A DNA stretch of 64,000 bases from NCBI RefSeq assembly GCF_003991155.1, contig NZ_CP031293.1; one strand, given 5' to 3'. This stretch comes from Escherichia coli (GTDB lineage: Bacteria; Pseudomonadota; Gammaproteobacteria; Enterobacterales; Enterobacteriaceae). The notes under the pieces were generated by a model, which worked only from the letters and a program-made list of their open reading frames with translations, made no database searches and had not been told where the DNA came from. The position numbers and the translations under genes were made by a program. Positions 33,692-63,115 of this stretch are shown piece by piece (within the stretch, counting starts at the first letter, position 1; the number at the start of each line of letters is the position of its first letter).

Positions 33692-33694
33692 GAG

Positions 33695-33770: not shown

Positions 33771-33821
33771 GATACTGCGCTGGATACTACAAACTACTTC
33801 CACCGAACCCACCGTCATTAG

Positions 33822-33897: not shown

Positions 33898-33899
33898 GG

Positions 33900-33975
33900 T
33901 GGTGGGTGATGACGGGATCGAACCGCCGACCCCCTCCTTGTAAGGGAGGTGCTCTCCCAGCTGAGCTAATCACCC
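33900..33975 (-). tRNA. valT: tRNA-Val (UAC)
   Basis: Identical to the other Val copy. Only 2 nt separate it from lysW. Confidence 0.93.
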
Positions 33976-34010
33976 GATACTACGCTGGATACTACAACTA
34001 ACTACGTTAG

Positions 34011-34086
34011 TGGTGGGTCGTGCAGGATTCGAACCTGCGACCAATTGATTAAAAGTCAACTGCTCTACCAACTGAGCTAACGACCC
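34011..34086 (-). tRNA. lysT: tRNA-Lys (UUU), first gene of the operon
   Basis: Identical 76-nt sequence. Symbol assigned by order. Confidence 0.93.
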
Positions 34087-45981: not shown

Positions 45982-46431
45982 ATGAAGAAAGCAACACTTG
46001 TGATTGGCGTTATTGGCGCGGACTGCCATGCAGTAGGCAATAAAGTTCTGGACCGCGTTTTTAGCAACCATGGCTTCAGAGTCATTAATCTGGGCGTAAT
46101 GGTCAGCCAGGACGAATATATTGATGCGGCCATTGAAACTGGCGCTGACGCGATTGTCGTCTCCTCTATCTATGGGCATGGCGATATCGACTGTCTGGGC
46201 ATGCGCGAACGCTGCATCGAGCGTGGACTGGGGGACATCCTGCTCTATGTGGGCGGTAACCTGGTGGTCGGAAAACATGACTTCGCTGACGTGGAAACCA
46301 AATTCAAAGAGATGGGATTTGATCGCGTCTTTGCCCCAAGTCATGACTTAGAAGATGTTTGTCAGCTGATGGCACACGATATCAACCAACGTCATGACGT
46401 TGATACTCGTATTCTTGAAGAGGCAATCTGA
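45982..46431 (+). CDS. glmS: Glutamate mutase (methylaspartate mutase) small B12-binding subunit sigma, 149 aa
   Basis: ORF 45919..46431 trimmed to the ATG at 45982 after [29 protein letters not shown] carries the DxHxxG cobalamin-binding motif and aligns to clostridial MutS/GlmS. Not the glucosamine-6-P synthase glmS. Confidence 0.88.
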
Positions 46432-47819
46432 TGCAAATCGTCTCTGTCGATATTGGATCGACGTGGACCAAAGCAGCCCTCTTCGCCCGGGAGGGGGATG
46501 CGTTAACGTTGGTTAACCACGTACTGACCCCAACCACCACCCATCATCTGGCGAAGGGGTTTTTCTCCAGCCTGAACCTGGTGTTAAACGTAGATAATGC
46601 CCTCCCCCTGTTTAACAACGGTGAGGTTGCATTGAAGTATTCCTCCTCTGCCAAAGGTGGGCTGGCGGTTGCCGCAATGGGATTGGTGCCTTCTATCACC
46701 CTGGAAACCGCGAAAGTAACCGCTCACTCTGCGGGGGCTAAAATTGCGCAATATTACGCCTACAAGCTGAACCGCCGTGATATCCAGGCACTGGAAGAAA
46801 CGCAGCCCGATATTCTCTTGTTCACCGGCGGCACCGACGGCGGAGAAGAAAGCTACGGCCTGAATAACGCCCGTGTGCTGGCAGAATCCAAACTCGACTG
46901 CGCCATTATTTATGCCGGAAACCGGGATATTCAGGACGAGGTGCAGGAGATCCTAGGGCATAAAGACCTGACCATCGTCGACAACGTTCTGCCCGATCTT
47001 GACCATCCGAACCCTTTAGCTGCACGCCAGGCTATCTGCGACATATTCCTTAAACGCATCGTTAAAGGGAAAGGGCTGGATGTCGTTGTTGATAAAACAG
47101 GCGAAGAACCAATGCCGACACCGTGGACAGTCTTTGAACTGGTTAAGGCAATCAGTAATGTCGATCACAGCTGGAAAGAGTTCATGCTGATCGACATGGG
47201 TGGCGCAACCACCGATGTCTATTCCGCCTGTGCCAACACGCTCTCGCCCGACACCGTTTTACACGGCGTACCGGAACCCTTCGTGAAACGGACGGTGGAA
47301 GGCGATCTGGGAATGCGCGTCTCGGCAATGGTGGTTGGTGAAAGTGCGAAAGAGTTAGTCAATGTGAATTTTGCTCAGCAACCCGCACAGCTGGACGCTT
47401 TTTATCATTACCTCCGTCATCTAGTCGCTCATCCCGACTACTTACCCGCGAATGCAGAAGAAAAATATTTCGATACCGTCCTGGCCGGACTGTGTGTGGG
47501 TTATGCCACCGAAAGACATGCGGGCACCAAAAAAGAGGTCTGCACCTGCGTCGGCAATGTCGATTTACAGATGGGACGTGACCTGACAACCGTGCGTAAA
47601 GTCGTCGGATCCGGCGGATGGCTCTCGCGTGCCAGTCAGTTCGATATGCATCACTGGTTGAAATACCGCGAGTTAAACGACGACGGTAAACGCATTCTCT
47701 TACCGACCGAATTTGAATATTACCGCGATTCCCGGGGGCTATTACCACTGCTGGCAAACGTCGCCAGAGTCGATCCGCTGGCCGCCGCGCGCACCAGTAT
47801 TCAATGCTTAACCCTATAA
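46431..47819 (+). CDS. glmL: Glutamate mutase accessory protein MutL/GlmL (ASKHA-fold, putative reactivase/chaperone), 462 aa
   Basis: [18 protein letters not shown]... is an actin/HSP70-like phosphate-1 motif. It sits between the S and E subunits as in clostridia. The ATG overlaps the glmS TGA. Confidence 0.8.
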   Translation: MQIVSVDIGSTWTKAALFAREGDALTLVNHVLTPTTTHHLAKGFFSSLNLVLNVDNALPLFNNGEVALKYSSSAKGGLAVAAMGLVPSITLETAKVTAHSAGAKIAQYYAYKLNRRDIQALEETQPDILLFTGGTDGGEESYGLNNARVLAESKLDCAIIYAGNRDIQDEVQEILGHKDLTIVDNVLPDLDHPNPLAARQAICDIFLKRIVKGKGLDVVVDKTGEEPMPTPWTVFELVKAISNVDHSWKEFMLIDMGGATTDVYSACANTLSPDTVLHGVPEPFVKRTVEGDLGMRVSAMVVGESAKELVNVNFAQQPAQLDAFYHYLRHLVAHPDYLPANAEEKYFDTVLAGLCVGYATERHAGTKKEVCTCVGNVDLQMGRDLTTVRKVVGSGGWLSRASQFDMHHWLKYRELNDDGKRILLPTEFEYYRDSRGLLPLLANVARVDPLAAARTSIQCLTL

Positions 47820-47837: not shown

Positions 47838-49283
47838 ATGGAACTTCGAAATAAGAAATTAACCCATGACGAATTCATGACCGAGCGGCAACAGGTACTG
47901 AAAACCTGGGAAACCGGCAAGGATGTTGAAAACTTTGAAGATGGCGTTAAATACCAACAAACCATTCCTGAGCATAAACGCTTCTCTCTTGCCCTGCTGA
48001 AAGCAGACAAGGAAGGTAAAACTCTTAGCCAACCGCGCGCAGGCGTGGCGCTGATGGACGAACACATCGAACTACTGAAAACACTACAAGAAGAGTGCGA
48101 TCTGCTGCCGAGCACCATCGATGCATATACCCGTCTGAATCGGTACGAAGAAGCGGCTGTAGGGATTAAAAAATCCATCGAAGCCGGAACCTCTAAACTG
48201 AACGGTTTACCGGTCGTTAACCACGGCGTCGCAGCTTGCCGTCGCCTCACCGAAACTCTGCAAAAACCGCTACAGATCCGCCACGGCACGCCAGATGCGC
48301 GTCTGCTGGCTGAAATCTCGATGGCCAGCGGCTTTACCAGTTATGAAGGCGGCGGCATTTCCTACAATATTCCGTATGCCAAGCGCGTAACGCTGGAAAA
48401 ATCGATCCGCGACTGGCAGTACTGCGACCGTTTAATGGGGATGTATGAAGAACACGGGATCCGCATCAACCGCGAACCGTTTGGCCCACTAACGGGTACC
48501 CTGATCCCGCCGTTTATCTCGCACTCTATCGCGATAATCGAAGGCTTGCTGGCGCTGGAACAGGGTGTGAAATCTATCACCGTTGGTTATGGACAGGTCG
48601 GCAGCCTGACGCAGGATGTTGCGGCGATCCAGTCTCTGCGTGAACTTGCACACGAATATTTTCAGAGCTATGGCTATACCGACTATGAATTAAGTACCGT
48701 GTTTCACCAGTGGATGGGCGGCTTTCCGGAAGACGAATCGAAAGCGTTCGCTATTATCTCCTGGGGCGCAGCCGTCGCGGGGATGTCTGGTGCCACCAAA
48801 GTCATCACCAAAAGTCCGCACGAAGCCTGGGGCATCCCGACTGCCGCTGCCAACATTCAGGGGCTGAAAGCCTCCCGCCAGATGCTCAACATGGTCAACG
48901 AGCAGAAATTCCCGCCGTGCCCTGCGGTTGAACTGGAAATTGAACTGATTAAGAGCGAGGTTCGCGCGGTACTGAATAAAGTGTTCGAACTGGGTAATGG
49001 TGATATTGCGCGCGGTACGGTGCTGGCATTTGAAGCGGGCGTACTGGATGTGCCGTTTGCGCCAGCCGCCTGCAACGCGGGCAAAATTCTTCCGGTCCGT
49101 GACAACACCGGCGCGATACGCGTACTGGAAGCCGGAGCCGTTCCATTGCCAAAAGATATTCTCGACCTCCACCACGATTACGTTGCGGAACGCGCACGCT
49201 TTGAAGGACGCCAACCGACATTCCAGATGGTTGTAGATGACATCAATGCTGTATCCCACAGTAAATTAATAGGAAGACCATAA
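47838..49283 (+). CDS. glmE: Glutamate mutase large catalytic subunit epsilon, 481 aa
   Basis: MELRNKKLTHDEFMTERQQVLKTWETGKDV...QPRAGVALMDEHIELLKTLQ...PSTIDAYTRLNRYEEA is collinear with clostridial MutE/GlmE. Confidence 0.9.
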   Translation: MELRNKKLTHDEFMTERQQVLKTWETGKDVENFEDGVKYQQTIPEHKRFSLALLKADKEGKTLSQPRAGVALMDEHIELLKTLQEECDLLPSTIDAYTRLNRYEEAAVGIKKSIEAGTSKLNGLPVVNHGVAACRRLTETLQKPLQIRHGTPDARLLAEISMASGFTSYEGGGISYNIPYAKRVTLEKSIRDWQYCDRLMGMYEEHGIRINREPFGPLTGTLIPPFISHSIAIIEGLLALEQGVKSITVGYGQVGSLTQDVAAIQSLRELAHEYFQSYGYTDYELSTVFHQWMGGFPEDESKAFAIISWGAAVAGMSGATKVITKSPHEAWGIPTAAANIQGLKASRQMLNMVNEQKFPPCPAVELEIELIKSEVRAVLNKVFELGNGDIARGTVLAFEAGVLDVPFAPAACNAGKILPVRDNTGAIRVLEAGAVPLPKDILDLHHDYVAERARFEGRQPTFQMVVDDINAVSHSKLIGRP

Positions 49284-50524
49284 TGAAAATAAAACAGGCT
49301 CTGTTCACCGCTGGCTACTCCTCATTCTATTTCGATGACCAGCAGGCGATAAAAAACGGAGCGGGTCATGACGGCTTTTTTTATACCGGGGAGCCGGTAA
49401 CACAGGGGTTTAACGCCGTTCGTCAGGCCGGGGAGTGCGTATCAGTACAGTTGATTCTGGAAAACGGCTCGGTCGCCGTAGGTGACTGTGCTGCCGTACA
49501 GTATTCCGGGGCAGGTGGTCGCGATCCACTGTTCCTCGCTGAGCACTTTATTCCGTTCCTCAACGACCATATCAAGCCATTACTGGTAGGCCGCGATGTG
49601 GATGCTTTCCTGCCGAATGCCCGTTTCTTCGACAAATTGCGTATTGACGGCAACTTGCTGCATACCGCCGTGCGCTACGGATTATCACAGGCGCTGCTTG
49701 ATGCTACCGCGCTGGCAACCGGCCGTCTGAAAACTGAAGTAGTTTGCGATGAATGGCAGTTGCCACGCGTGGCGGAATCCATTCCATTATTTGGTCAGAG
49801 CGGGGACGATCGATATATCGCCGTCGATAAGATGATCCTTAAGGGCATCGACGTGCTGCCCCATGCACTGATTAATAACGTCGAAGAGAAACTGGGCTTT
49901 AAAGGTGAAAAACTGCGCGAATATGTCCGCTGGCTGTCGGATCGTATTCTGAGCAAGCGCACCAGCGCACGCTACCACCCTACCCTGCACATCGATGTAT
50001 ACGGCACTATCGGTCTGATCTTCGATATGGATCCGCTTCGCTGTGCGCAATACATCGCCAGCCTGGAAAAAGAAGCGCAAGGCCTGCCGCTCTACATTGA
50101 AGGGCCGGTCGATGCCGGTAACAAGCCCGATCAAATTCGCCTGCTGACCGCGATTACCAAAGAGCTGACGCGCCTCGGTTCCGGCGTGAAAATTGTGGCC
50201 GATGAATGGTGTAACACCTACCAGGATATTGTTGATTTCACTGATGCCGCCAGTTGTCACATGGTGCAAATCAAAACCCCGGATCTGGGCAGTATTCACA
50301 ACATCGTCGATGCGGTTCTTTACTGCAACAGCCACAGCATGGAAGCGTACCAGGGCGGCACCTGCAATGAAACTGATGTCAGTGCCCGCACCTGTGTCCA
50401 CGTCGCCCTTGCCGCTCGCCCTATGCGTATGCTGGTAAAGCCAGGGATGGGCTTTGACGAAGGCCTCGATATCGTCTTCAACGAAATGAATCGTACTATC
50501 GCGCTGTTGCAGGCTAAGGATTAA
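49283..50524 (+). CDS. mal: 3-methylaspartate ammonia-lyase (enolase superfamily), 413 aa
   Basis: MKIKQALFTAGYSSFYFDDQQAIKNGAGHDGF...CAAVQYSGAGGRDPLF...HMVQIKTPDLG closely parallels Clostridium tetanomorphum MAL. TAATG overlap with glmE. Confidence 0.92.
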   Translation: MKIKQALFTAGYSSFYFDDQQAIKNGAGHDGFFYTGEPVTQGFNAVRQAGECVSVQLILENGSVAVGDCAAVQYSGAGGRDPLFLAEHFIPFLNDHIKPLLVGRDVDAFLPNARFFDKLRIDGNLLHTAVRYGLSQALLDATALATGRLKTEVVCDEWQLPRVAESIPLFGQSGDDRYIAVDKMILKGIDVLPHALINNVEEKLGFKGEKLREYVRWLSDRILSKRTSARYHPTLHIDVYGTIGLIFDMDPLRCAQYIASLEKEAQGLPLYIEGPVDAGNKPDQIRLLTAITKELTRLGSGVKIVADEWCNTYQDIVDFTDAASCHMVQIKTPDLGSIHNIVDAVLYCNSHSMEAYQGGTCNETDVSARTCVHVALAARPMRMLVKPGMGFDEGLDIVFNEMNRTIALLQAKD

Positions 50525-50527
50525 CAA

Positions 50528-51898
50528 ATGGCTCGTTCTTTTAAAGTCTTATCGCCAACGGCAATCCTCGGGTATGGATTCCCGGAAGAGAGCTTCCGCA
50601 AAGCGATGGCAGAATCGCCCGATCTGATCGCCGTTGATGCAGGCTCTTCCGATCCTGGCCCCCACTACCTCGGAGCGGGCAAACCGTTTACCGATCGCGC
50701 AGGGGTCAAGCGCGATCTGCGCTATATGATCACCGCAGGCGTGCAAAATAATATACCGGTGGTGATCGGAACAGCTGGCGGTTCTGGTGCCGCACCACAC
50801 CTGGAGTGGTGCCGAGAAATAATTCATGAGATTGCCCGGGAAGAGCGACTCGTGTTCTCGATGGCGCTGATCCCGGCAGACGTTGACAAAGCCATCGTCC
50901 ACCAGGCGCTGGATAACGGCAAAATCACGGCGCTGGATTTTGTCCCGCCGTTAACCCACGACGCGATTGACGAAAGTACGTATATCGTTGCGCAAATGGG
51001 CATCGAACCCTTCCAGCGGGCGCTGAAAGAAGGCGCGCAAGTGGTGCTGGGCGGGCGCGCTTACGACCCGGCCTGCTTTGCTGCGCTCCCGATCATGCAA
51101 GGCTTTGATGAAGGTCTGGCGCTGCATTGTGGGAAAATCCTTGAATGCGCGGCAATCGCCGCAACGCCCGGCTCAGGCTCTGACTGTGCGATGGGCATCA
51201 TTGATGACAACGGCTTTACGCTGAAGACATTTAATCCGAAGCGTAAATTTACCGAAACGTCAGCGGCTGCACACACACTGTATGAGAAATCCGATCCCTA
51301 CTTCCTGCCTGGACCTGGCGGCGTGTTGAACCTGAAAGGCTGCACATTTAAAGCGGTCAATGACGGCGAAGTGTACGTCAGCGGTTCTAAGCATGAAGAA
51401 ACGCCGTATGCCCTGAAACTGGAAGGTGCGCGACGGGTGGGCTTCCGCTGTCTGACCATCGCAGGAACGCGCGACCCGATCATGATCGCCGGGATCGATA
51501 AAATCATCGATGAAGTCAAAACCAGCGTTTCACGTAACCTGTCGCTCGACGATGACAGCATTCGCATCAATTTCCACCTGTACGGCAAAAACGGGGTGAT
51601 GGGCGACCATGAACCGATGCAAACTGCCGGGCATGAGCTGGGGATTGTCCTTGATGTAGTTGCACCGACCCAGGAAATTGCCAATAGCGTTTGCTCGCTG
51701 GTGCGCTCTACCATGCTGCACTACGGCTATGAAAACCGCATCGCTACCGCAGGCAATCTGGCGTTCCCGTTCTCCCCTTCTGATATCCAGGGCGGGCCGG
51801 TATACGAATTTTCCATATATCACCTGATTGAAGCCAACGACGCTCTGCGTTTTGATTTCCATATTGAACAGGTGACGCCAGAAGGAGTTCAGGCATGA
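50528..51898 (+). CDS. Uncharacterised protein, AtuA/DUF1446-like, 456 aa
   Basis: MARSFKVLSPTAILGYGFPEESFRKAMAESPDLIAVDAGSSDPGPHYLG... The family call is from memory of DUF1446 architecture and its habitual pairing with DUF4387; it was not checked against profiles. Confidence 0.75.
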   Translation: MARSFKVLSPTAILGYGFPEESFRKAMAESPDLIAVDAGSSDPGPHYLGAGKPFTDRAGVKRDLRYMITAGVQNNIPVVIGTAGGSGAAPHLEWCREIIHEIAREERLVFSMALIPADVDKAIVHQALDNGKITALDFVPPLTHDAIDESTYIVAQMGIEPFQRALKEGAQVVLGGRAYDPACFAALPIMQGFDEGLALHCGKILECAAIAATPGSGSDCAMGIIDDNGFTLKTFNPKRKFTETSAAAHTLYEKSDPYFLPGPGGVLNLKGCTFKAVNDGEVYVSGSKHEETPYALKLEGARRVGFRCLTIAGTRDPIMIAGIDKIIDEVKTSVSRNLSLDDDSIRINFHLYGKNGVMGDHEPMQTAGHELGIVLDVVAPTQEIANSVCSLVRSTMLHYGYENRIATAGNLAFPFSPSDIQGGPVYEFSIYHLIEANDALRFDFHIEQVTPEGVQA

Positions 51899-52212
51899 AA
51901 CAGTCAATTGTCTCACTGGCGCAAGTCATTCGTTCGAAAAATGCCGGACCTTACGAACTGGTTTTAGATATTTTATTTAAAACGAAAGAAAACTATGAGC
52001 GAGTTAAATCATCAGGGCAATTAACCCCAGAACTGATTGCGCGCTTATATCATGTTGAACCTGACTTTATTCACCGTATTGTCTGGTTTGATCCTTCTAA
52101 CGCAGTAAAAATCGTCATGCCACGAGATATTATCTCCGGGAATGTAGGTGACAATGATGTCTATGGTGCACAGCAACATGCACCTTTATTAAATATGAGT
52201 TTCGATTTGTAA
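51895..52212 (+). CDS. Uncharacterised protein, DUF4387-like, 105 aa
   Basis: ...VIRSKNAGPYELVLDILFKTKENYERVKSSGQLTPELIARLY...DVYGAQQHAPLL matches my recollection of the DUF4387 signature. ATGA start/stop overlap with the upstream gene. Confidence 0.75.
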   Translation: MKQSIVSLAQVIRSKNAGPYELVLDILFKTKENYERVKSSGQLTPELIARLYHVEPDFIHRIVWFDPSNAVKIVMPRDIISGNVGDNDVYGAQQHAPLLNMSFDL

Positions 52213-52295
52213 AAATCCGAATACTTTTAGCCAACTGACATCCCGTCACTTATTGCAGTTCAACACTTCAGCTATTTGTAAGGTTGTAATAGCAG

Positions 52296-52327
52296 GTAGA
52301 TGCCTGAATCTCTATTCAGGCATCTAC
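52296..52327 (+). terminator. Strong intra-cluster hairpin (14-bp perfect stem): terminator, attenuator or processing site
   Basis: GTAGATGCCTGAAT-CTCT-ATTCAGGCATCTAC is followed by TTCTCCTGATTCTGATTT. It lies between the DUF4387-like gene and the transporter gene. Confidence 0.55.
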
Positions 52328-52372
52328 TTCTCCTGATTCTGATTTATCGCCGTGCACCTGATGGAGGAAAAA

Positions 52373-53653
52373 ATGAAGAAAATAAGTTTAACCACGATGA
52401 TTCTTTTGGCGCTGGTACTTGGAATGATTATCGGCGTAGTGCTCAATAACACTGCTTCACCGGAAACCGCAAAACTCTATGCGCAAGAAATATCGATATT
52501 CACGACGATTTTCTTACGACTGATAAAAATGATTATCGCTCCGTTAGTGGTCTCTACCCTGGTGGTAGGTATAGCTAAAATGGGAGATGCCAAAGCCCTT
52601 GGTCGTATTTTTTCTAAAACACTCTTTTTATTTATTTGCGCCTCATTGCTGTCAATTGCCTTAGGCTTGATAACGGTAAATTTCTTCATGCCAGGCACAG
52701 GAATTAATTTTGTTGCACACGGTGCCGAAACCACCGGAGTGGTCGCGTCAGAACCCTTTACACTAAAAGTATTTATTTCGCATGCTTTCCCCACCAGCAT
52801 TGTCGATGCCATGGCACACAATGAAATTTTGCAAATCGTGGTGTTCTCAATTTTCCTCGGCTGTAGCCTGACGGCGATTGGTGAGAAAGGCAGCGCCATC
52901 GTTCACGCCTTAGATTCGCTGGCACATGCCATGTTAAAGCTCACTGGCTACGTCATGCTCTTCGCTCCCCTGACCGTATTCGCCGCTATTTCAGCATTGA
53001 TTGCTGAACGAGGACTGGCAGTTATGGTGAGCGCCGGGATCTTTATGGGTGAATTTTATTTCACCATGTTGTTACTTTGGGTGCTGCTTATCGGTCTGGC
53101 CATCGTTTATGTCGGCCCCTGCATCAGACGCCTGACCCGTGCCCTTTCGGAACCCGCCCTGCTGGCATTTACCACATCCAGTTCTGAAGCGGCTTTTCCG
53201 GGAACGCTTGAAAAACTGGAGCAATTTGGCGTTTCCCCCAAAATTGCCAGCTTTGTCTTACCCATTGGCTACTCATTTAATCTCGTTGGATCAATGGCCT
53301 ACTGCTCCTTCGCCACAGTTTTCATCGCCCAGGCCTGCAATATCCATTTATCCATCGGTGAGCAAATCACCATGCTGTTGATCCTGATGTTGACCTCGAA
53401 AGGAATGGCTGGCGTACCACGCGCCTCAATGGTGGTTATCGCCGCCACGCTCAACCAGTTCAATATTCCGGAAGCGGGGCTGATCTTGCTGATGGGCGTT
53501 GATCCGTTCCTTGATATGGGGCGTTCCGCGACAAACGTCATGAGCAACGCAATGGGCGCTGCGATGGTGAGTCGGTGGGAAGGCGAACATTTCGGCGAGG
53601 GCTGTCGGGGTAAAGCATTAAAACCCAATGAATCGAACGTTGCTCTGCCCTGA
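52373..53653 (+). CDS. Dicarboxylate/amino acid:cation symporter (DAACS; GltP/DctA-like), 426 aa
   Basis: ORF 52352..53653 trimmed to the ATG at 52373 after GGAGG. MKKISLTTMILLALVLGMIIGVVLN... is polytopic with the family-typical region GVPRASMVVIAATL. Confidence 0.88.
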   Translation: MKKISLTTMILLALVLGMIIGVVLNNTASPETAKLYAQEISIFTTIFLRLIKMIIAPLVVSTLVVGIAKMGDAKALGRIFSKTLFLFICASLLSIALGLITVNFFMPGTGINFVAHGAETTGVVASEPFTLKVFISHAFPTSIVDAMAHNEILQIVVFSIFLGCSLTAIGEKGSAIVHALDSLAHAMLKLTGYVMLFAPLTVFAAISALIAERGLAVMVSAGIFMGEFYFTMLLLWVLLIGLAIVYVGPCIRRLTRALSEPALLAFTTSSSEAAFPGTLEKLEQFGVSPKIASFVLPIGYSFNLVGSMAYCSFATVFIAQACNIHLSIGEQITMLLILMLTSKGMAGVPRASMVVIAATLNQFNIPEAGLILLMGVDPFLDMGRSATNVMSNAMGAAMVSRWEGEHFGEGCRGKALKPNESNVALP

Positions 53654-53760: not shown

Positions 53761-55413
53761 ATGTCCAAACCATTTATCTGGCAAGAACCGTTTCTACAAA
53801 ATAAAGACGGTACAGAATATACATTAATTAGCGATCAACATATTACAGTAACGGAATTAGACGGCGAAGAAGTGATAAAAATCGCTCCTGAAGCATTAAC
53901 GCTGCTTGCCCGGCAGGCATTTTATGAAGCCTCTTTTTTCTTACGTTCCGCTCATTTGCAACAGGTCGCCAGCATTCTTAACGATCCGCACGCCAGTAGT
54001 AATGATAAATACGTTGCGTTGCAGTTATTACGTAATGCTGAAGTCTCAGCAAAAGGGGTATTACCCAACTGTCAGGATACCGGCACCGCAACTATTGTTG
54101 CCAGTAAAGGGCAACAGATATGGACCGGAGGTAACGACGCTGAAGCCTTAAGCAAAGGCATTTACACCACTTTTCAGGAAAATAATCTGCGCTTTTCACA
54201 AAATGCGCCACTGGATATGTATACCGAAGTCAATACGCAAACCAATCTACCGGCGCAGATTGATATCAGCGCCGTCGCTGGTGATGAGTACCATTTTCTC
54301 TGTATTAATAAAGGGGGCGGCTCTGCCAATAAAGCCGCGCTTTATCAGGAAACCAAATCCCTATTGCAACCAGAAAAACTGACCGCATTTTTAATCGAAA
54401 AAATGAAATCGCTGGGCACCGCTGCCTGCCCGCCTTACCACATCGCCTTTGTCGTCGGAGGGCTTTCAGCCGATCAAACCTTAAAAGTTGCCAAGCTGGC
54501 CTCAACGAAATATTACGACAATTTGCCCACCAGCGGAAACGAGCAAGGACAAGCATTCCGTGATATTGAGCTGGAAAAAGTATTGCTCGAGGCCAGTCAG
54601 CAATTTGGTATTGGTGCGCAATTTGGGGGTAAATATTTCGCTCATGATATTCGCGTCATTCGTCTGCCGCGTCACGGTGGCTCTTGCCCGATAGCTATGG
54701 CGCTCTCCTGTTCTGCGGATCGCAATATCAAAGCAAAAATTAACAAGCACGGTATCTGGCTGGAAAAACTCGAACACAATCCGGGGCAATATATTCCAGC
54801 CTCACTGCGGGAAGAAAATCACGCGCAACATGTACAGCTGGATCTAAACCGTCCGTTGCGTGACGTGATGCAGGATCTCGCCAGATTACCGGTAGGCACC
54901 CGCGTGTCGTTAAGTGGTCCCATCGTAGTGGCGCGCGATATCGCCCACGCCAAAATAAAAGCGCGGCTGGATAGCGGCGAACCGATGCCGGATTACCTGA
55001 AGCATCATATTGTCTATTACGCTGGCCCGGCGAAAACACCGGAGAACATGGCCTGCGGTTCACTGGGTCCAACCACGGGCGGTCGAATGGACGGTTATGT
55101 CGATACCTTCCAGGCGGCTGGCGGCAGTCTGGTGATGTTATCGAAAGGTAACCGCAGCCAGCAGGTCACCGATGCCTGTCACAAACATGGCGGCTTCAAT
55201 CTGGGGAGTATTGGCGGTGCAGCTGCGTTACTGGCGCAAGAATATGTCAAAAGTCTGCGTTGCCTGGAATACCCGGAGCTGGGTATGGAAGCGGTGTGGA
55301 TGATGGAAGTGGAAAATTTACCCGCATTCATCCTGGTAGATGATAAAGGCAATAATTTCTTTAGTCAGTTTGAGCAGCAACACCGCTGCGCCAGTTGCCC
55401 TGCGGGACATTAA
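53761..55413 (+). CDS. fumD: Class I (Fe-S) fumarate hydratase family enzyme, probable mesaconase/fumarase, 550 aa
   Basis: [30 protein letters not shown]...[10 protein letters not shown]...[11 protein letters not shown] is FumA/FumB-like over its full length. The fumD symbol follows the O157:H7 class I fumarase I recall being reported next to the glutamate mutase genes. Confidence 0.85.
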
Positions 55414-55422: not shown

Positions 55423-56025
55423 ATGGAAGCGCGAATTTCAACTGAACGGCATGTGCAGCGCCAGCAGAAATTGAAGGAACAGGTCGATACGCGCGTCGCG
55501 GCGGCGATAGAGAAAAAAGGGATTTTGATTGTTTTCACCGGCAACGGCAAAGGGAAATCCACTGCCGCGTTTGGTACTGTGACGCGCGCGGTGGGTCATG
55601 GCAAAACGGTGGGGGTTGCGCAGTACATCAAGGGGCAATGGGACAACGGCGAATACAACCTTCTCCAACCGCTGGGGGTTGAGTTTCATATTATGGGAAC
55701 CGGTTTTACCTGGGAGACACAGAACCGGCAAGCGGATATCGACGCGGCGAAAGAGGTCTGGTCGGAAAGCAAACGGATGCTGGCTGACAAGCGTTACGAC
55801 TTAGTGGTGCTTGATGAGCTGACCTATATGCTGGCTTACCATTATCTGGACACCGAAGAAGTGATCGCTTCTCTGCAAAACCGCCCGGCACAACAAAGTG
55901 TCATTGTCACCGGACGCGGTTGCCACAGTCAGATATTAAAAATGGCGGATACGGTCAGCGAAATCCGCCCCGTCAAACATGCTTTTGATAACGGCATTCA
56001 GGCGCAGCCGGGTATCGACTGGTAA
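55423..56025 (+). CDS. ATP:cob(I)alamin adenosyltransferase, CobA/BtuR/CobO family, 200 aa
   Basis: ...GILIVFTGNGKGKSTAAFG (P-loop)...DLVVLDELTY...VIVTGRG... is typical of the CobA family. Starts 9 nt after fumD. Confidence 0.88.
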   Translation: MEARISTERHVQRQQKLKEQVDTRVAAAIEKKGILIVFTGNGKGKSTAAFGTVTRAVGHGKTVGVAQYIKGQWDNGEYNLLQPLGVEFHIMGTGFTWETQNRQADIDAAKEVWSESKRMLADKRYDLVVLDELTYMLAYHYLDTEEVIASLQNRPAQQSVIVTGRGCHSQILKMADTVSEIRPVKHAFDNGIQAQPGIDW

Positions 56026-56027: not shown

Positions 56028-56059
56028 ACTGCGCCTGGCATCCCGCCAGGCGCAGGTTT
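56028..56059 (+). terminator. Terminator between convergent cobA-like and LysR genes
   Basis: CTGCGCCTGG-CATCCCG-CCAGGCGCAG (10-bp stem) followed by GTTTT. Confidence 0.7.
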
Positions 56060-56964
56060 TACATCTCCTGCGGTACGACCGATTTCGCCAGCAACCATTC
56101 ACGAAATTGCTGCAAGTGCGGTGAGTCAGACTTCTCTTCCTGCCACGTCATAATAAAACGATTACCGGTACGAATAGGCACATCACAGGGAATCACCATA
56201 TCGCCACTATCCAAATCATGTTGAATAGCGAACCGTGGTAACAGCGCCACGCCGAGATTAGAGCGCACGGCGGCAATCAGCATTGAAAGCAAATCGAAAC
56301 GTGGTCCGTTATTGACCAGCGGACTGCTAACGCCAGATAAAGCAAACCACTCTTCCCAGCCAGTAATACGGGTGCTTTGATGCAGAAGTGGTAACTCAGT
56401 AAGCAGTTCTGCCACTGACAGTTTTTGATCGGACATTGCAAGCAAACTGCCGCTGCATACCGGCAAAATCTCCTCATCAAAGAGATATTCTACTTCCGCC
56501 CAGGGCGCGCAAAAATTTTCGCGCATAATGACAGCATCGTACTCCCGATTAAGAAAATCGCCGTTATTAGCTAAAGAATGAATATTAACAATAATATCGG
56601 GATGTAACTTTGTGAATTCATGTAAATTTGGGATTAACCAGTGGGTACTAAAAGTAGGATTAACGGCAAGTTCAATAACCTGAACCGTAGGCTGCCAGGT
56701 CATAATGGTATTGGTATCGCGTTCCAGCTTATTTAATGTTTCTTTTACTATCCCCAGGTAATACTTCCCTGCATCATTAAGAAAAATGCGTTTTTTAGAG
56801 TGTGAAAATAACGGAGTACGTAAAAATTCCTCCAGCGCACTTACTTGTCTGAATACTGCACTTTGGGTTAACGCTAACTCCTCTGCCGCTCTGGTATAAC
56901 TTTCATGACGTGCGACGACCTCAAAAGTCACCAGCAGTTCCGTTTTAGGTATTTTTCCTCGCAT
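56059..56964 (-). CDS. LysR-family transcriptional regulator (GcvA-like), 301 aa
   Basis: MRGKIPKTELLVTFEVVARHESYTRAAEELALTQSAVFRQVSALEEFL contains the wHTH, followed by a LysR substrate-binding domain. Confidence 0.88.
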   Translation of the reverse strand: MRGKIPKTELLVTFEVVARHESYTRAAEELALTQSAVFRQVSALEEFLRTPLFSHSKKRIFLNDAGKYYLGIVKETLNKLERDTNTIMTWQPTVQVIELAVNPTFSTHWLIPNLHEFTKLHPDIIVNIHSLANNGDFLNREYDAVIMRENFCAPWAEVEYLFDEEILPVCSGSLLAMSDQKLSVAELLTELPLLHQSTRITGWEEWFALSGVSSPLVNNGPRFDLLSMLIAAVRSNLGVALLPRFAIQHDLDSGDMVIPCDVPIRTGNRFIMTWQEEKSDSPHLQQFREWLLAKSVVPQEM

Positions 56965-57002
56965 AATGCCTTCCCTTAAAAATAGTTGAAACTATCAAAA
57001 AA

Positions 57003-57026
57003 CCATTACTTATTGCTAAGTAATGG
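57003..57026. promoter_or_regulatory. Perfect 24-bp palindrome upstream of the LysR gene (candidate autoregulatory operator)
   Basis: CCATTACTTA-TTGC-TAAGTAATGG lies 39 bp upstream of the regulator ATG. Confidence 0.4.
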
Positions 57027-57115
57027 CAACCAAAGCAGCAATCAATATTTTATAAAAATCATGTTCGATATTTATAACCTGGTAAGCCTGGCGTGACAAT
57101 TGTCTCAATCAGACA

Positions 57116-57154
57116 ATAATAATCCGAAAAGCAAAACGCCCTTCGGATTATTAT
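57116..57154 (-). terminator. Hairpin downstream of the ammonia-lyase-like gene
   Basis: ATAATAATCCGAA-13 nt-TTCGGATTATTAT is a 13-bp stem. On the minus strand it is followed by ATTGTCTGATTG. Confidence 0.45.
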
Positions 57155-57234
57155 GATTCAAGTTAAGTGAAGATTATTAAATTGATAGCAATTATCATAT
57201 CTATGGATATTATGACAAACAATCAACAAAAATT

Positions 57235-58905
57235 TTATTTTTGATTTATAGCATATCCTTCTAAGAATTTTTGCGAAGCTGCAATATCTGGGGTAAAGAC
57301 CCGATCCTGGTCGACAAACGGCACGACTTTTCTGTATTCGGTAAACATTGCTTTGGTGGATTTCCCTAATGCCAGTTGTGGATCGGCCTGCAACCGTAAA
57401 TCGAGAGCCTGTGCGGAATGCATCAGTTCAATGCCATAAATCACGTTCAGATTATCGACAACCTGTTTCAATCTTCTGGCCGCGTGGTCATTATTGGCAC
57501 CGGTATCTTCTATACCTCCGGCAACCGGTTGAATATCGAAAGAAACCGGGTTAGCGAGATCGACATTTTCCGCATGCAGCGCAACAAACGGGATATGTAA
57601 TGAACCGAAGCCATGACCTTTATTACCTGCTGCCGACAGGAAGCGTGACAAACCGGTAAAGTGATCATCTTCAAGATGCAGCGAGCGGCGCATACTGTTA
57701 TGTGAAACATGCACTAACGCCACGGTCAGACGCTGGGTGGCAAGCGCAACCGGTAACGATTCGAAATTCGCCGTCGGGAAGATCCCACCGCTGATTGCCC
57801 CATCTTTAACAAAATATTGCGCGACCTGACTGGAGTCCTGATACGCTTTGTCTGCATTCAGCACGGTTGCCGGGTTGTCATCGGAACTGTTGATCTGCAC
57901 GGTAATGGTATCTTCAGCATCGCGCAACGCGCGCATTGCCTCAGAAATGGTATACACCGTCGTTCTGAACGATAACGGATCCTGCAATGCACGTTTGTCA
58001 TGCTTATGCCATAAATAAGAACCACTTAACGCATCGCGAATCTCTTTAGCGGAATCAGCCAACTGCGGGAAAGGACGCACGGCGATCGACTGCGGCAGTA
58101 CCGGCGCGACATTGCCATTCAACGCTTCCAGACTCATAGCGAAAACCACCGGGCTGACATTCAGCAACTGACGTGCCGAACGAACAGCTTCGATAGCGTA
58201 GGCTGTCCCGACGCTGTTGTTCGATAAAATCGCCAGCATATCTTTACCCTGCGGTACCAGTGGCTTAAGTCCCACTTTCGCCAGCGCGTCACCACCGCTC
58301 ATTTGCACGCCATTTACTCGGGCTTTCCATTCCCCCATCATCACCAGACCAACGTGCGAAGCGAGCATAATATCCGCTGCGCCGATACTTCCCCGCACCG
58401 GAATTAACGGTGTAACGCCGCGATTAATAAATTCGGCATACAACTCGGCAATATAAGGCTGTGCGCCGGTTTGCCCATGCAGCATGGTATTTAAACGTAA
58501 TACCATTGAAAGGCGTGCCAGATAATCCGGTAACATCGGACCAACGCCCGCAGAATGGGCGCGCAGCGCGGCAGCATTAAATTTTTTCGACGCGTCAATC
58601 ACCTCAGGCGTTAAATTTCCTTTGGCATCAAATATGGGCTGATCTTTATTTAGCCCCACGCCCACGGTTAAGCCATAAACAGGCGTACCTGAATGCGCGG
58701 CAGTCATCACCAGATCATAACTTTTTTCCATGCGCTCCATGGCGTTCGACGCGATTTTGACGCCGTTATCACCTAATGCAATTGACCAGGCCTGGTCAAT
58801 GGAAAGATGTTCGCCATCCAGCGTAATGGTTGATTTCGCCATCGCAATGGAGCAAACGCTCCAGAGCACAACGGTGACAGTGACTCTTCGTATCAATCCT
58901 TTCAT
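57235..58905 (-). CDS. Aromatic amino acid (histidine/phenylalanine) ammonia-lyase-family protein with an N-terminal signal peptide and no Ala-Ser-Gly MIO motif, 556 aa
   Basis: MKGLIRRVTVTVVLWSVCSIAMA|KSTITLDGEHLS... aligns collinearly with HutH from residue ~25. The MIO region reads GSIGAADIMLASH where HAL has GSVGASGDLAPLAH. Confidence 0.85.
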   Translation of the reverse strand: MKGLIRRVTVTVVLWSVCSIAMAKSTITLDGEHLSIDQAWSIALGDNGVKIASNAMERMEKSYDLVMTAAHSGTPVYGLTVGVGLNKDQPIFDAKGNLTPEVIDASKKFNAAALRAHSAGVGPMLPDYLARLSMVLRLNTMLHGQTGAQPYIAELYAEFINRGVTPLIPVRGSIGAADIMLASHVGLVMMGEWKARVNGVQMSGGDALAKVGLKPLVPQGKDMLAILSNNSVGTAYAIEAVRSARQLLNVSPVVFAMSLEALNGNVAPVLPQSIAVRPFPQLADSAKEIRDALSGSYLWHKHDKRALQDPLSFRTTVYTISEAMRALRDAEDTITVQINSSDDNPATVLNADKAYQDSSQVAQYFVKDGAISGGIFPTANFESLPVALATQRLTVALVHVSHNSMRRSLHLEDDHFTGLSRFLSAAGNKGHGFGSLHIPFVALHAENVDLANPVSFDIQPVAGGIEDTGANNDHAARRLKQVVDNLNVIYGIELMHSAQALDLRLQADPQLALGKSTKAMFTEYRKVVPFVDQDRVFTPDIAASQKFLEGYAINQK

Positions 58906-58955
58906 TGTGTTTCCTTATCATGATGAGTTTAACAACGGGTTACTGCGACAACGTT

Positions 58956-59906
58956 TTAATTTGTTCTATCTGTTTTCCCCCGCCGGACAATACTGGTCAC
59001 CAGGCGAGCGGCAACTTTCGCAGTTAAATTATCGCGGTCCAGGTCCGGGTTAAGTTCGGCAATATCCGCAGCAATCAACTTCTCGCTACCGGCGATTAAA
59101 TTCACAATGGCTTCAGTAATATTTAACGGCACGCCTAACGGTGATGGAGCAGAAACACCGGGCGCCTGATAACCTGGTAAAACATCGAGACAAATCGTTA
59201 AATAAATGGCGTCACAAGCCTGAATATCTGCCGAGAGCGCATTAGCGATCTCATGCAAACCACGTTCAAATTGCAGAGATTCGTCCAGCCAATAACGCAC
59301 ACCGAGACAATCAGCGCGATCAAATAACGCCTGAGTATTGGCAAAACGACTTATTCCCAGCACGCGATAATGAAACGGTTTGCCATGCTGCGCGTTCCAC
59401 TCTTGCATCTGACGAAACGGCGTACCTGAATTGGCTTGTTCCGCCATCCGTAAATCAAAATGCGCGTCAAGGTTCACAATCAGTAACCGCTGAATATCCG
59501 GACGCGACTGCATAATCCCCTGAAATGTTCCCCACGCCACTTCATGACCGCCCCCCAGAACCACCGGTAAACTGCCGCGCGCAATGGCTGTAGATACGTT
59601 AGCCGCCAGACGATTTTGTGCGGATTCCAGCGCGTGGTCCTCGCTTTGTACATCGCCCATATCGAAAATAGCGCCTTCACAGAGCACTGGCATATTTCCC
59701 AACATGCTGCGCAACGCGCCCGGTCCGCCTGCTGCACCCGCTCGCCCATCATTACGTTGCACTCCGTCATCAACGGCAAAACCAATCAGCGTACAACCGC
59801 CGTGGCTTTGTTCACTAAACGGTTGCACATGCTGATGCCAGCGAGTGCTGATGCCGGTTTCCTGCGAGTCAACACGCCCACTCCACGGCAAAAATGTTTG
59901 CTTCAT
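58956..59906 (-). CDS. hutG: Formimidoylglutamase (arginase fold), 316 aa
   Basis: ORF 58956..59945 trimmed to the ATG at 59904-59906 after GGAG. MKQTFLPWSGRVD... with GGGHE, DAHFD and CLDVL metal-site motifs. TAATG overlap with hutI. Confidence 0.88.
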   Translation of the reverse strand: MKQTFLPWSGRVDSQETGISTRWHQHVQPFSEQSHGGCTLIGFAVDDGVQRNDGRAGAAGGPGALRSMLGNMPVLCEGAIFDMGDVQSEDHALESAQNRLAANVSTAIARGSLPVVLGGGHEVAWGTFQGIMQSRPDIQRLLIVNLDAHFDLRMAEQANSGTPFRQMQEWNAQHGKPFHYRVLGISRFANTQALFDRADCLGVRYWLDESLQFERGLHEIANALSADIQACDAIYLTICLDVLPGYQAPGVSAPSPLGVPLNITEAIVNLIAGSEKLIAADIAELNPDLDRDNLTAKVAARLVTSIVRRGKTDRTN

Positions 59907-61117
59907 TACCAACTCCTTTTTCCGCCGACAATAAGCCCCTGGCAAGGCTGATGCCCAAACCAGTAAGCCAGTTCACGTGGATGATTAAGATCCCAGACCG
60001 CCATATCCGCCCGTAATCCCGGTGCAAGTTCACCCCGGTCAATAAGTCCAAGTGCCTTTGCCGCATTACGCGTAACGCCCTGAACGGCTTCCAGCGGCGT
60101 CATGCGAAACAGCGTACAGGCCATATTGATCATCAATGGCAATGACATATTGGGAGACGTTCCGGGATTATGGTCCGTGGAGATAGCAATCGGCACACCT
60201 GCGGCCCGCAGAGCGACAATCGGCGGCAGATGGGTTTCGCGCAGGAAGTAATAAGCACCGGGAAGCAAAACCGCCACTGTTCCAGCCGCTTTCATGGCGG
60301 CGATCCCCGACTCGCTCAGGTACTCCAGATGATCGCAGGAGAGTGCAGAAAACGCCGCTGCCAGCGCCGCGCCTTGCTGGTCAGAAAGCTGTTCGGCATG
60401 CAGTTTTACAGGTAATCCATAGCTTTGCGCTTTACTGAAAACGCGCCGTACCTGCTCTGGAGTAAAGGCGATGTTTTCACAAAAAGCATCAACTGCATCA
60501 ATCAGCCCCTGTTCATGCAACACGCACATCCAGTCGCAAAGCGCCGTAATGTAATCATCACTGCGCCCGGCAAACTCTGGCGGCAGGCTGTGCGCCCCGA
60601 GAAACGTAGACTGAATATGTAACCCGGTAGATTGCTGCAAGCGGCGGATCACGCGTAAACAACGTGCTTCATCTTCCAGCGTTAAGCCATAACCCGATTT
60701 GATTTCAAGCGTACTGACGCCTTCACGTTGCCAGTTTCGCAGTCGCTGCGCCGCCAGTTCAAACAACTGTGTTTCGCTGGCTGCCCGCGTGGCATTAACC
60801 GTAGATAAGATCCCGCCGCCCGCTCTGGCGATATCTTCATAAGCCACGCCTTGCAACCGCATCTCAAACTCGTTCGCCCTCTGGCCGCCATACACCAGAT
60901 GTGTATGACAATCCACCAGACCGGGTGTCAGCAACTTACCCTGTAGATCGTGTTCCTCTGTAATATCAGCCGTCAGTTCACGGGGGATCTGCGTGGCCTT
61001 CCCAAGCCAGACAATCGAGTCACCACGGCTGATTAATGCCCCCTTTTCAATCACTCCCCAATCGTTAGCGGAAAGCGTCGCCAGCGTGGTATTTCGCCAG
61101 AGCGTTAATGCACTCAT
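59906..61117 (-). CDS. hutI: Imidazolonepropionase, 403 aa
   Basis: ORF 59906..61150 trimmed to the ATG at 61115-61117 (MSALTLWRNTTLATL...). It carries the amidohydrolase motif GLVDCHTHLVYGG. ATGA overlap with hutD. Confidence 0.9.
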   Translation of the reverse strand: MSALTLWRNTTLATLSANDWGVIEKGALISRGDSIVWLGKATQIPRELTADITEEHDLQGKLLTPGLVDCHTHLVYGGQRANEFEMRLQGVAYEDIARAGGGILSTVNATRAASETQLFELAAQRLRNWQREGVSTLEIKSGYGLTLEDEARCLRVIRRLQQSTGLHIQSTFLGAHSLPPEFAGRSDDYITALCDWMCVLHEQGLIDAVDAFCENIAFTPEQVRRVFSKAQSYGLPVKLHAEQLSDQQGAALAAAFSALSCDHLEYLSESGIAAMKAAGTVAVLLPGAYYFLRETHLPPIVALRAAGVPIAISTDHNPGTSPNMSLPLMINMACTLFRMTPLEAVQGVTRNAAKALGLIDRGELAPGLRADMAVWDLNHPRELAYWFGHQPCQGLIVGGKRSW

Positions 61118-61704
61118 AAGGATTTTTCCCCTCGTAGATAATAAAGCCACCAGCCCGCCAGCTCACCGACGGAGACTTTCTTCCGTGGTACGAAACGCCA
61201 GGGCCTGCCATCAGGTGCAACCAGCCATAACAACATATTTGCCGCGACAAACACCCTTTTCTTGCCGCTTATCCACTCCCCTTCACACAGCGTGAACAGG
61301 CCCGCTTGCGCAAGTGACGGAGGACGCCAGTCAACGGCACTTTGCACCCGCAACATCCCCGCATCGCCTTCCCGCGCCATAACATTCAGATCGCGAACCC
61401 CGCCGCCCAGCAGCTGGCAATCAGGCATAGCTTCTCCAGGGAAAATTAAGGCGGGATCGTGACGTTGCAGGTTGATGATCGAATCGGCAAACGTTAGCTT
61501 CACCCCTTCCCCGTCGAGAATCGCGAGGCCACGAACCACGCCAGGCCACGCTGAAAAAGAGCCATCCTGACTGACATTCGCCATACTGATGCGCAACAAC
61601 CAGTTTTCATCATCGGGCCAGGCAAGCAGCTGTCGGGTAAACCCCCCGCCGTTGCGCCACGGTTGCAGCGGCTTATCCATTGCAGAAATCAGCATCGGTT
61701 CCAT
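61114..61704 (-). CDS. hutD: HutD-family protein, 196 aa
   Basis: ...PLQPWRNGGGFTRQLLAWP... is the HutD signature (W-x-NGGG-x-T). Start codon uncertain: ATG at 61704 or the in-frame ATG three codons downstream (61695). Confidence 0.8.
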   Translation of the reverse strand: MEPMLISAMDKPLQPWRNGGGFTRQLLAWPDDENWLLRISMANVSQDGSFSAWPGVVRGLAILDGEGVKLTFADSIINLQRHDPALIFPGEAMPDCQLLGGGVRDLNVMAREGDAGMLRVQSAVDWRPPSLAQAGLFTLCEGEWISGKKRVFVAANMLLWLVAPDGRPWRFVPRKKVSVGELAGWWLYYLRGEKSL

Positions 61705-61705
61705 A

Positions 61706-63115
61706 TTAAGACTCGGGATAAATCGTATAAGCAGGAACGCAGGTGGTGCGTTTGGCCCACGGGTAATAGATAACGGCGGTAATTAACAAGCCGACAATCC
61801 AGGAGATATCCGCCCCATCCATCAGGACAGAAATGGGTCCCTGATACAGTTTTTGATTCAGGAAGGGGATCTGCACCAACACGCCTACGCCATAGCACGT
61901 CAAAGCGGTTTTGTTATACGCGCCATAACGCCCTTCCGGGGTATAAAGTGCCGGAATATCGGTTTTACCTTGTGAGATGAAGTAGTAGTCGATGAGATTA
62001 ATGGCGCTCCACGGCACAAATACCGTCAACAGCAGCAGAACGAAGTTTTTGAAATTATTCAAAAAATCTGCGCTTGCCGCCAGCGCGACGACCATCGACA
62101 ACAGCACGAACCCTACAACGTAGGCAGCACGAACACGCTGTGAAACCTGACTGCGATTATTAAAGGCGCTGACGGTCGCCAGAATCGACATAAAGCCACC
62201 GTAGGCATTCAAACAGTTCACCGTCAGTTTGCCGCAAACAATCACCGTATAAATCAGAATGGCGAAGGTGGGTCCGGCTAACTCACCCATAAAACCAACC
62301 TGATCCTTCAGGAAGTTAGCACCACAGGCCGCAACAAGCACGCCAAACGTCATGGCACATTGCGCGCCAAGCGTGGTTCCCAGAAAGGTGGCAAAGAAGA
62401 TTGATTTTGCTGGCGTATCAGAGGGTAAATAGCGGGAATAATCAGAGGCGTAAGGGGCAAACGTTAATTGCCATCCGGCAGAGAGAGCAATCGTTAATAA
62501 AAAGACCGACAGACTAAATGGCTTTTGACCAAATGCCGCAGCCACATCGTAGTGACCGCTAAGTTGAGTGGCCAGGTAAATAAACCCCAGAATACTTAAT
62601 ATCCCTGCAACACGGCCAACGACGTGAATAAGTTTATAACCGACCAATGCGATCATCGCGGTCAGCATGCCGAAAATAATAATTCCGGTCGATGCCGATT
62701 CGAAACCAAATATCCGGTTAATCGCCTGACCGGATAATACTGTACCCGTCGCGGCAAATCCAAGGTACATAATAATCACCATCAGTAACGGTAGCGCCGC
62801 TCCTTTAACGCCAAAGCGGATACGACTGGAGATCATCTGGGGTAATCCCAGCTTTGCCCCCTGCGACGAGTGCAATGCCATTACTGCACCACCAATAATA
62901 TTACCGATTAATAAACCAATTATTGCTGACATGGCTTCGGAGCCAAAAATAATCGCTAACGCGCCGTCCACCACAGCGGTAATTTGTAAGTTAGCACTTA
63001 GCCATAAAGTAAACTGACTGGATGGCGAGCCGTGGCGAGCAGACTCAGGAACGGCGTTAATCGTATTTGATTCTAATACTGGCTTTTTACTGCGGATAGG
63101 GCTGCTTGATTCCAT
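61706..63115 (-). CDS. NCS1-family (purine-cytosine/hydantoin-type) permease, 469 aa
   Basis: ORF 61706..63160 trimmed to the ATG at 63113-63115 after AGGAG. MESSSPIRSKKPVLESNTINAVPESARHGSPSSQFTLWLSANLQI... is polytopic. Confidence 0.85.
   Translation of the reverse strand: MESSSPIRSKKPVLESNTINAVPESARHGSPSSQFTLWLSANLQITAVVDGALAIIFGSEAMSAIIGLLIGNIIGGAVMALHSSQGAKLGLPQMISSRIRFGVKGAALPLLMVIIMYLGFAATGTVLSGQAINRIFGFESASTGIIIFGMLTAMIALVGYKLIHVVGRVAGILSILGFIYLATQLSGHYDVAAAFGQKPFSLSVFLLTIALSAGWQLTFAPYASDYSRYLPSDTPAKSIFFATFLGTTLGAQCAMTFGVLVAACGANFLKDQVGFMGELAGPTFAILIYTVIVCGKLTVNCLNAYGGFMSILATVSAFNNRSQVSQRVRAAYVVGFVLLSMVVALAASADFLNNFKNFVLLLLTVFVPWSAINLIDYYFISQGKTDIPALYTPEGRYGAYNKTALTCYGVGVLVQIPFLNQKLYQGPISVLMDGADISWIVGLLITAVIYYPWAKRTTCVPAYTIYPES

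Follow-up and report, generated by a model that had tools for sequence, protein, structure and literature searches.

A probable orthologue of the citramalate lyase CmlAB in the methylaspartate operon of Escherichia coli

Introduction

This paper concerns cmlA and cmlB, two adjacent genes at positions 50528-52212 of a 64-kb stretch of Escherichia coli chromosome (hereafter the window), and the systems to which they can be compared. The closest of these is CmlAB of Raoultella planticola, which is represented in the Protein Data Bank (PDB) by two entries. The first, 9ERQ, is titled 'Citramalate lyase - AMPPNP - citramalate complex' and was released on 2025-10-22, whilst the second, 9EVF, is titled 'Citramalate lyase - ADP - pyruvate complex' and was released on 2025-10-08. 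The depositors named the chains 'Citramalate lyase, subunit A (cmlA)' and 'subunit B (cmlB)'. The R. planticola genes, which came from the Berg laboratory, have been used in vivo to convert citramalate to pyruvate and acetate (bioRxiv 10.64898/2026.01.16.699985). In the same preprint, an evolved E. coli strain auxotrophic for acetyl-coenzyme A (acetyl-CoA) grew on mesaconate via FumA and Cml, growth depended on the Cml plasmid and was abolished by curing, and tracing of label into leucine showed that acetyl-CoA was made from mesaconate. For the Raoultella enzyme the name, the complex of A and B, the function as a citramalate lyase in vivo and two ligand-bound states (AMPPNP with citramalate, ADP with pyruvate) are established. 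CmlAB as an enzyme is already known, and its discovery was made by others. A literature search turned up this 2026 preprint and a 2015 paper on the mesaconase FumD (Kronen and Berg, PMC4682846), and found no primary description of CmlAB.

The 2015 paper pointed out that mal is followed in enterobacteria, E. coli O157:H7 included, by a DUF1446 gene to which no function had been assigned, and that the fate of citramalate in these organisms was unclear (PMC4682846). CmlAB fills this gap, which had been open since then: these enterobacteria have glutamate mutase, methylaspartase and mesaconase but no recognisable citramalate-cleaving enzyme.

Other routes for the cleavage of citramalate have been described. 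The citramalate/citrate lyase that depends on acyl carrier protein (ACP; CitDEF, Clostridium tetanomorphum, EC 4.1.3.22) catalyses the same net reaction, from (S)-citramalate to pyruvate and acetate. It likewise acts as the last enzyme of the methylaspartate pathway and, in Clostridia, is often found in similar glm-mal-mesaconase clusters (PMC4682846). CitDEF is, however, unrelated to CmlAB. Besides activation enzymes it requires one subunit that transfers acyl groups and another that carries them on a prosthetic group, whereas CmlAB has none of these components and binds ATP/ADP. A further route, in which succinyl-CoA:citramalate CoA-transferase is followed by (S)-citramalyl-CoA lyase, also takes citramalate to pyruvate and a C2 unit during the use of mesaconate or itaconate (PMC4682846, Fig 2). 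Unlike CmlAB, this route runs through CoA thioesters, gives acetyl-CoA as product and employs unrelated enzymes, and most enterobacteria are without them (PMC4682846).

The relatives of CmlAB by family are the AtuA proteins of acyclic terpene utilisation in Pseudomonas and Thauera, which are often fused to DUF4387 and belong to the same Pfam families. The AtuA reaction is also of the same type, converting a tertiary beta-hydroxy acid to a ketone and acetate, and therefore the AtuA/DUF4387 family may share one reaction type. To our knowledge, the activity of AtuA has never been demonstrated. AtuA is distant from CmlA, which matches the Pfam family with 70.6 bits as against more than 600 bits for close CmlA relatives. 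Moreover, unlike CmlA, AtuA has as its substrate the CoA ester of a terpenoid acid and lies in another genomic context.

Lastly, ATP-citrate lyase uses ATP to activate the carboxylate of a tertiary hydroxy-acid, as citryl phosphate, before the C-C bond is cleaved. The analogy is mechanistic only, as ATP-citrate lyase, unlike CmlAB, needs CoA and cleaves citryl-CoA, and no sequence or fold similarity between the two enzymes was detected.

Results and discussion

Identity of the gene pair

The gene cmlA (50528-51898, plus strand) encodes a protein of 456 aa and cmlB (51895-52212, plus strand) one of 105 aa, each from an ATG start. In a PDB sequence search CmlA matched chain A of 9ERQ and 9EVF over its full length (E 2.8e-292), and CmlB matched chain B of both entries (E 5.2e-57). 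Gapless identity to the crystallised chains is 420/456 residues (92.1%) for CmlA and 88/104 (84.6%) for CmlB. The crystallised enzyme is, like the window pair, made of two subunits of 456 aa and 105 aa from the same gene families, with the family-invariant residues common to both. It differs in its host species and by 36 substitutions in CmlA and 16 in CmlB. When CmlA of the window was aligned with 32 diverse homologues (61-89% identity), all of the invariant columns (153/153) held the same residue in the window and crystallised proteins, and the 36 differences between the two fell in variable columns, with the exception of one conservative change, D148E. The window proteins were modelled with AlphaFold, with a predicted local distance difference test (pLDDT) score of 85.3 and 88.7. 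These models overlay the crystal chains, and Foldseek gave a template modelling (TM) score of 0.93 on 9evf_A.

From these sequence comparisons we conclude, with a probability of about 0.9, that the pair at 50528-52212 is the E. coli orthologue of CmlAB and encodes a heteromeric citramalate lyase. A first-pass annotation of this DNA had suggested that the pair replaces a citramalate-cleaving step missing in cis. This suggestion is supported, since the depositors of 9ERQ and 9EVF and the authors of the 2026 preprint name CmlAB a citramalate lyase. Its accompanying statement, that no function had been established for either family, no longer holds, as substrate- and product-bound structures have been public since October 2025 and CmlAB already serves as a tool. 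The idea of an enzyme acting in this pathway thus stood with respect to the cleavage of citramalate, whilst the apparent involvement of ATP/ADP had not been foreseen.

Some observations weigh against this assignment. The evidence for activity comes from the Raoultella orthologue. Moreover, Kronen and Berg detected no citramalate lyase activity in extracts of E. coli ATCC 700728 and found no condition under which the cluster is expressed (PMC4682846). Their extracts came from cells grown on citrate, acetate or propionate, and ATP does not appear in the composition given for the assay (PMC4682846). The negative result of 2015 therefore fits a requirement for ATP, given a mixture listing none, and growth conditions that may not express the cluster.

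Family assignment and subunit arrangement

CmlA falls in PF07287 (AtuA, DUF1446), with E 1.5e-19 and the bit score given above against a gathering cut-off of 22.8, and CmlB in PF14330 (DUF4387; residues 6-101), with E 2.6e-39 and 134.3 bits against a cut-off of 27. The AtuA match of CmlA is limited to this score and to residues 63-394, and CmlA therefore represents a divergent subfamily of PF07287. Both assignments had been made in the first-pass annotation, with PF07287 and PF14330 expected, and Pfam confirmed them. Neither protein matched any NCBIfam model. RefSeq labels the two products 'acyclic terpene utilization AtuA family protein' (cmlA) and 'DUF4387 domain-containing protein' (cmlB). 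The practical value of our analysis for the window is a corrected annotation of both genes. The family is large: with a limit of E 0.001 HMMER recovered 2,383 clusters (50% identity), and 443 when the limit was tightened to E 1e-30.

The motif by which DUF4387 had been recognised is invariant in 30 homologues, in which S14, K15, G18 and P19 are followed by D88, Y90, G91, A92, Q93, Q94, H95, A96, P97 and L98. The best-conserved loops, CmlA ~37-63 and CmlB 85-98, are at the same time the lowest-confidence parts of the predicted monomer models. Such low confidence would be expected of segments that become ordered only at ligands or at the subunit interface, and so fits the participation of ATP.

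The two genes had been read as encoding subunits of one enzyme. In support of this, near-identical orthologues form chains A and B in 9ERQ and 9EVF alike, and natural A-B fusions occur in 17 of the best 150 representatives at 50% identity, with the DUF4387 part on the C-terminal side. The arrangement of the reading frames, as first described, proved exact in every detail when the list of open reading frames (ORFs) and the sequence were read again: the ORFs of 456 aa and 105 aa begin 3 nt after methylaspartase and overlap by ATGA. The mal stop codon TAA occupies 50522-50524, with the cmlA ATG 3 nt after it, and the cmlA stop and cmlB start share 51895-51898 (plus strand), an arrangement that suggests translational coupling. 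A Shine-Dalgarno sequence for cmlA, AAGGA, lies within the 3′ end of mal (50516-50520, plus strand) and one for cmlB, GAAGGAG, within the 3′ end of cmlA (51881-51887, plus strand), each 7 nt 5′ of its ATG. The overlap and these strong internal ribosome-binding sites would lead to coupled synthesis of CmlA and CmlB.

Annotation as a methylaspartate ammonia-lyase

Three database records (P0002, P0060 and P0072) name close homologues of CmlA '3-methylaspartate ammonia-lyase'. Taken at face value, these names would make the large protein a second methylaspartate ammonia-lyase or some other enzyme acting on methylaspartate. This we hold to be extremely improbable, as the ligands in the crystals are citramalate and pyruvate, and Kronen and Berg had flagged the annotation as unexplained (PMC4682846). 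Moreover, no MAAL_N, MAAL_C or enolase-type domain is found in CmlA, PF07287 alone matches, and the true Mal is encoded by the preceding gene. We therefore rejected this candidate; the label on the homologues is a propagated misannotation.

Place in the methylaspartate pathway

Gene annotation was taken from RefSeq for the chromosome of E. coli WP2-W18-ESBL-08, which is 99.99-100% identical to the window. The operon has the order glmS-glmL-glmE-mal-cmlA-cmlB-transporter-fumD-cobO, with all genes on the plus strand. Every other enzyme of the pathway is present, and all nine genes are intact.

The first pathway gene is glmS (45982-46431; NF002612, 253 bits), for subunit S of methylaspartate (glutamate) mutase; its start follows RefSeq, the mechanical ORF starting at 45919. 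It is followed by glmL (46431-47819; NF040745, 508 bits), for the accessory or reactivating protein of the mutase, glmE (47838-49283; TIGR01503, 865 bits), for mutase subunit E, and mal (49283-50524; TIGR01502, 544 bits, with MAAL_N and MAAL_C), for the methylaspartate ammonia-lyase that forms mesaconate. As the first-pass annotation had stated, a transporter gene and then the mesaconase gene lie 3′ of the pair. The former (52373-53653 with the RefSeq start, ORF 52352-53653; PF00375, 343 bits) encodes a dicarboxylate/amino acid:cation symporter similar to GltP and DctA that is probably responsible for glutamate uptake; the symporter of this cluster is termed GltP in PMC4682846. The latter, fumD (53761-55413; NF011921, 1285.9 bits), encodes a class I fumarase/mesaconase that would convert mesaconate to (S)-citramalate, the putative substrate of CmlAB. 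FumD of E. coli O157:H7 has been characterised biochemically as a mesaconase (PMC4682846). The last gene, cobO (55423-56025; PF02572, 216 bits, and annotation), encodes a cob(I)alamin adenosyltransferase making the coenzyme of the mutase, and its sole Pfam matches are to corrinoid adenosyltransferase families. A terminator-like hairpin with an 11-bp stem and 9 G-C pairs (56029-56055, plus strand), recognised by match to the consensus, probably marks the end of the operon.

In the pathway that the operon encodes, the B12-dependent mutase GlmSE rearranges imported glutamate to methylaspartate, Mal deaminates methylaspartate to mesaconate, and FumD hydrates mesaconate to (S)-citramalate. CmlAB would then cleave the C2-C3 bond of (S)-citramalate to give pyruvate and a C2 unit that ends as acetate, and would need neither CoA nor ACP for this step.

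The annotation of the 64-kb window includes neither a citDEF-type nor a citramalyl-CoA lyase gene, and no other citramalate-cleaving gene was found there. Membership of the CitDEF type of lyase was rejected as well: among the eight operon proteins from GlmS to FumD there was no Pfam or NCBIfam match to CitD, CitE or CitF, or to CitC, CitX or CitG.

From the cmlB stop (52212) to the ATG of the transporter gene (52373) there is a spacer of 160 nt, which holds a perfect 15-bp hairpin at 52295-52328, GUAGAUGCCUGAAUC ... GAUUCAGGCAUCUAC, with a 4-nt loop and no U-tract. Taken whole, this spacer folds more strongly than shuffled sequences (z -2.4). The hairpin could stabilise the mRNA or direct its processing, or could act between the lyase genes and the transporter gene as a partial attenuator.

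Role of ATP and mechanism of cleavage

The substrate complex was trapped with the non-hydrolysable AMPPNP and the product complex contains ADP and pyruvate, and it is therefore plausible that ATP is a co-substrate. In the mechanism that we propose, ATP would phosphorylate the C4 carboxylate to give citramalyl phosphate. This acyl phosphate would stand in for the thioester of the ACP- and CoA-dependent lyases and so enable a retro-aldol cleavage. The C2 product might be released as acetyl phosphate, or the phosphoryl group might be passed back to enzyme-bound ADP. Acetyl phosphate would be turned into acetate and ATP by acetate kinase or by CmlAB, such that citramalate would yield pyruvate and acetate with no net expense of ATP. 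This neutrality would be needed because the fermentation must stay energetically worthwhile. Judging from the ligands, we consider an acyl-phosphate mechanism with ATP as co-substrate somewhat better than an even chance. The enzyme class is of interest in its own right, as it breaks a C-C bond without CoA or ACP and apparently with ATP.

Several points count against a role of this kind for ATP. It rests on the titles of two PDB entries (9ERQ and 9EVF), no kinase-like or other known ATP-utilising fold was detected in CmlAB, and the preprint names acetate as what is formed, with no reference to ATP or acetyl phosphate (bioRxiv 10.64898/2026.01.16.699985). The nucleotide could instead be a structural or allosteric ligand, with CmlAB cleaving the free acid by a simple retro-aldol reaction, like that of isocitrate lyase, and giving acetate directly without phosphoryl transfer. 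The lack of a detectable ATP-utilising fold would agree with this, as would the chassis evolved on mesaconate, in which FumA and Acs were upregulated, a result that fits a product of free acetate (bioRxiv 10.64898/2026.01.16.699985). We nevertheless think such a plain aldolase unlikely. AMPPNP with substrate and ADP with pyruvate is the pattern expected when ATP turns over, forming a carbanion beside a free carboxylate is difficult chemistry, and thioesters are employed by the citrate and citramalate lyases known so far (PMC4682846).

Related loci in other genomes

We scanned one genome per species and obtained 80 loci with relatives of at least 56% identity. These span Enterobacteriaceae, Morganella, Rifleibacteriota, Spirochaetes, Acidobacteriota/Aminicenantes, Lentisphaerota, Planctomycetota, Bacillota and others. 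Neighbours were counted at loci with room on the relevant side (77 for cmlB, 73 for mal and 62 for the wider context). The pairing of the two genes is almost universal, with cmlB directly 3′ of cmlA in 76/77 loci and 266 nt downstream in the remaining one. The 4-nt overlap of stop and start occurs in 42/77 loci and an overlap of any kind in 47/77, whilst the spacing is 20 nt or less in 73/77. A neighbourhood survey had been proposed in the first-pass annotation, and in it the pair was indeed found together with mal and glmE: mal is directly upstream of cmlA in 63/73 loci, and glmS, glmE and mal are all upstream in 53/62. A homologue of class I fumarase lies within 5 kb downstream in 33/62 loci.

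Departures from this arrangement were also seen. In locus L076, which is without mutase genes, cmlAB is accompanied by a tripartite ATP-independent periplasmic (TRAP) DctM permease, a MerR protein, a sigma-54 activator and an alpha-type subunit of class I fumarase; by its gene content, this arrangement is consistent with direct use of mesaconate. In L063 (2013-3822), from a metagenome-assembled genome (MAG) of Bacillota, a gene similar to the D-component of 2-hydroxyglutaryl-CoA dehydratase and a BcrAD/BadFG-type activator ATPase lie directly 5′ of cmlAB. Here they replace the mutase genes, and mal is kept further upstream. A second Bacillota MAG, L059 (1192-1986), has an activator-type ATPase alone 5′ of cmlAB in the region scanned, again replacing the mutase genes.

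Five further loci (L053, L061, L066, L074 and L078) hold stand-alone pairs resembling cmlAB (~10001-11700; 57-58% identity), and within 10 kb of these there is no gene for glutamate mutase, methylaspartase or fumarase. The neighbours of these pairs are unrelated and include a carboxyl transferase, an M4 protease, LysR, PAC2 and a transposase. These pairs may serve other sources of citramalate or of related hydroxy acids. It is a tentative and rather doubtful extension that ATP-assisted acyl-phosphate chemistry, free of thioesters and turning a tertiary beta-hydroxy acid into a ketone and an acetyl unit, is common to the whole AtuA/DUF4387 family, including AtuA proper acting on 3-hydroxy-3-isohexenylglutaryl-CoA. 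When the loci without mal were checked for another context, the rest had unrelated neighbours (a protease, a beta-lactamase-fold protein, a transposase and an ABC ATPase), and therefore no second pathway can be proposed from them.

Maintenance of the genes in E. coli

The genes cmlA and cmlB are present in 1125 of 5426 complete E. coli genomes (~21%). Given that so few of these genomes carry the cluster, and that neither expression conditions nor glutamate-dependent anaerobic growth were found by Kronen and Berg (PMC4682846), the cluster including cmlAB could be a cryptic relic of horizontal transfer that now serves no physiological purpose in E. coli. We consider this improbable. Not one of the nine genes is broken, and the operon comes with its own transporter and B12 adenosyltransferase. 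Moreover, the order of the operon and its position beside cydAB are kept in Citrobacter, Klebsiella and Salmonella. Both genes also appear to be under purifying constraint, with a ratio of non-synonymous to synonymous substitution rates (dN/dS) of 0.035-0.074 against Citrobacter, Klebsiella, Salmonella, Buttiauxella, an uncultured Enterobacter and Pseudescherichia (cmlA only), values that are approximate because dS is saturated. About a fifth of complete E. coli genomes would on this account hold a complete and selectively maintained route from glutamate to pyruvate plus acetate, and from histidine too where the adjacent hut genes are counted.

Surrounding region

The island that contains the operon lies between cydAB and a hut cluster. 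A LysR-family gene (56059-56964, minus strand; PF00126 and PF03466) converges on the operon and is a candidate regulator of the island; it is drawn as a LysR-type transcriptional regulator (LTTR) in PMC4682846, Fig 5. It is the first of the minus-strand genes at 56059-64000 and is followed by the hut set, namely a HAL-type ammonia-lyase, hutG, hutI, a hutD-like gene, a permease and hutU. The hut set thus adjoins the glutamate operon and converges on it. As hut genes supply glutamate from histidine, the island may run from histidine through glutamate to pyruvate and acetate.

On the other side, two plus-strand ORFs lie 5′ of glmS, at 43988-44932 (314 aa) and 45013-45435 (140 aa), and both are labelled 'hypothetical protein' in RefSeq. 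With the limit set as loosely as E 1, Pfam and NCBIfam gave no match to either ORF, and tblastn found no counterpart in the 80 related loci, those of Citrobacter, Klebsiella and Salmonella included. Elsewhere in the window, seven tRNA genes (five Lys and two Val) lie between nadA and cpoB at 33383-34086, with internal repeats of ~93% identity; these are ordinary content of the E. coli chromosome.

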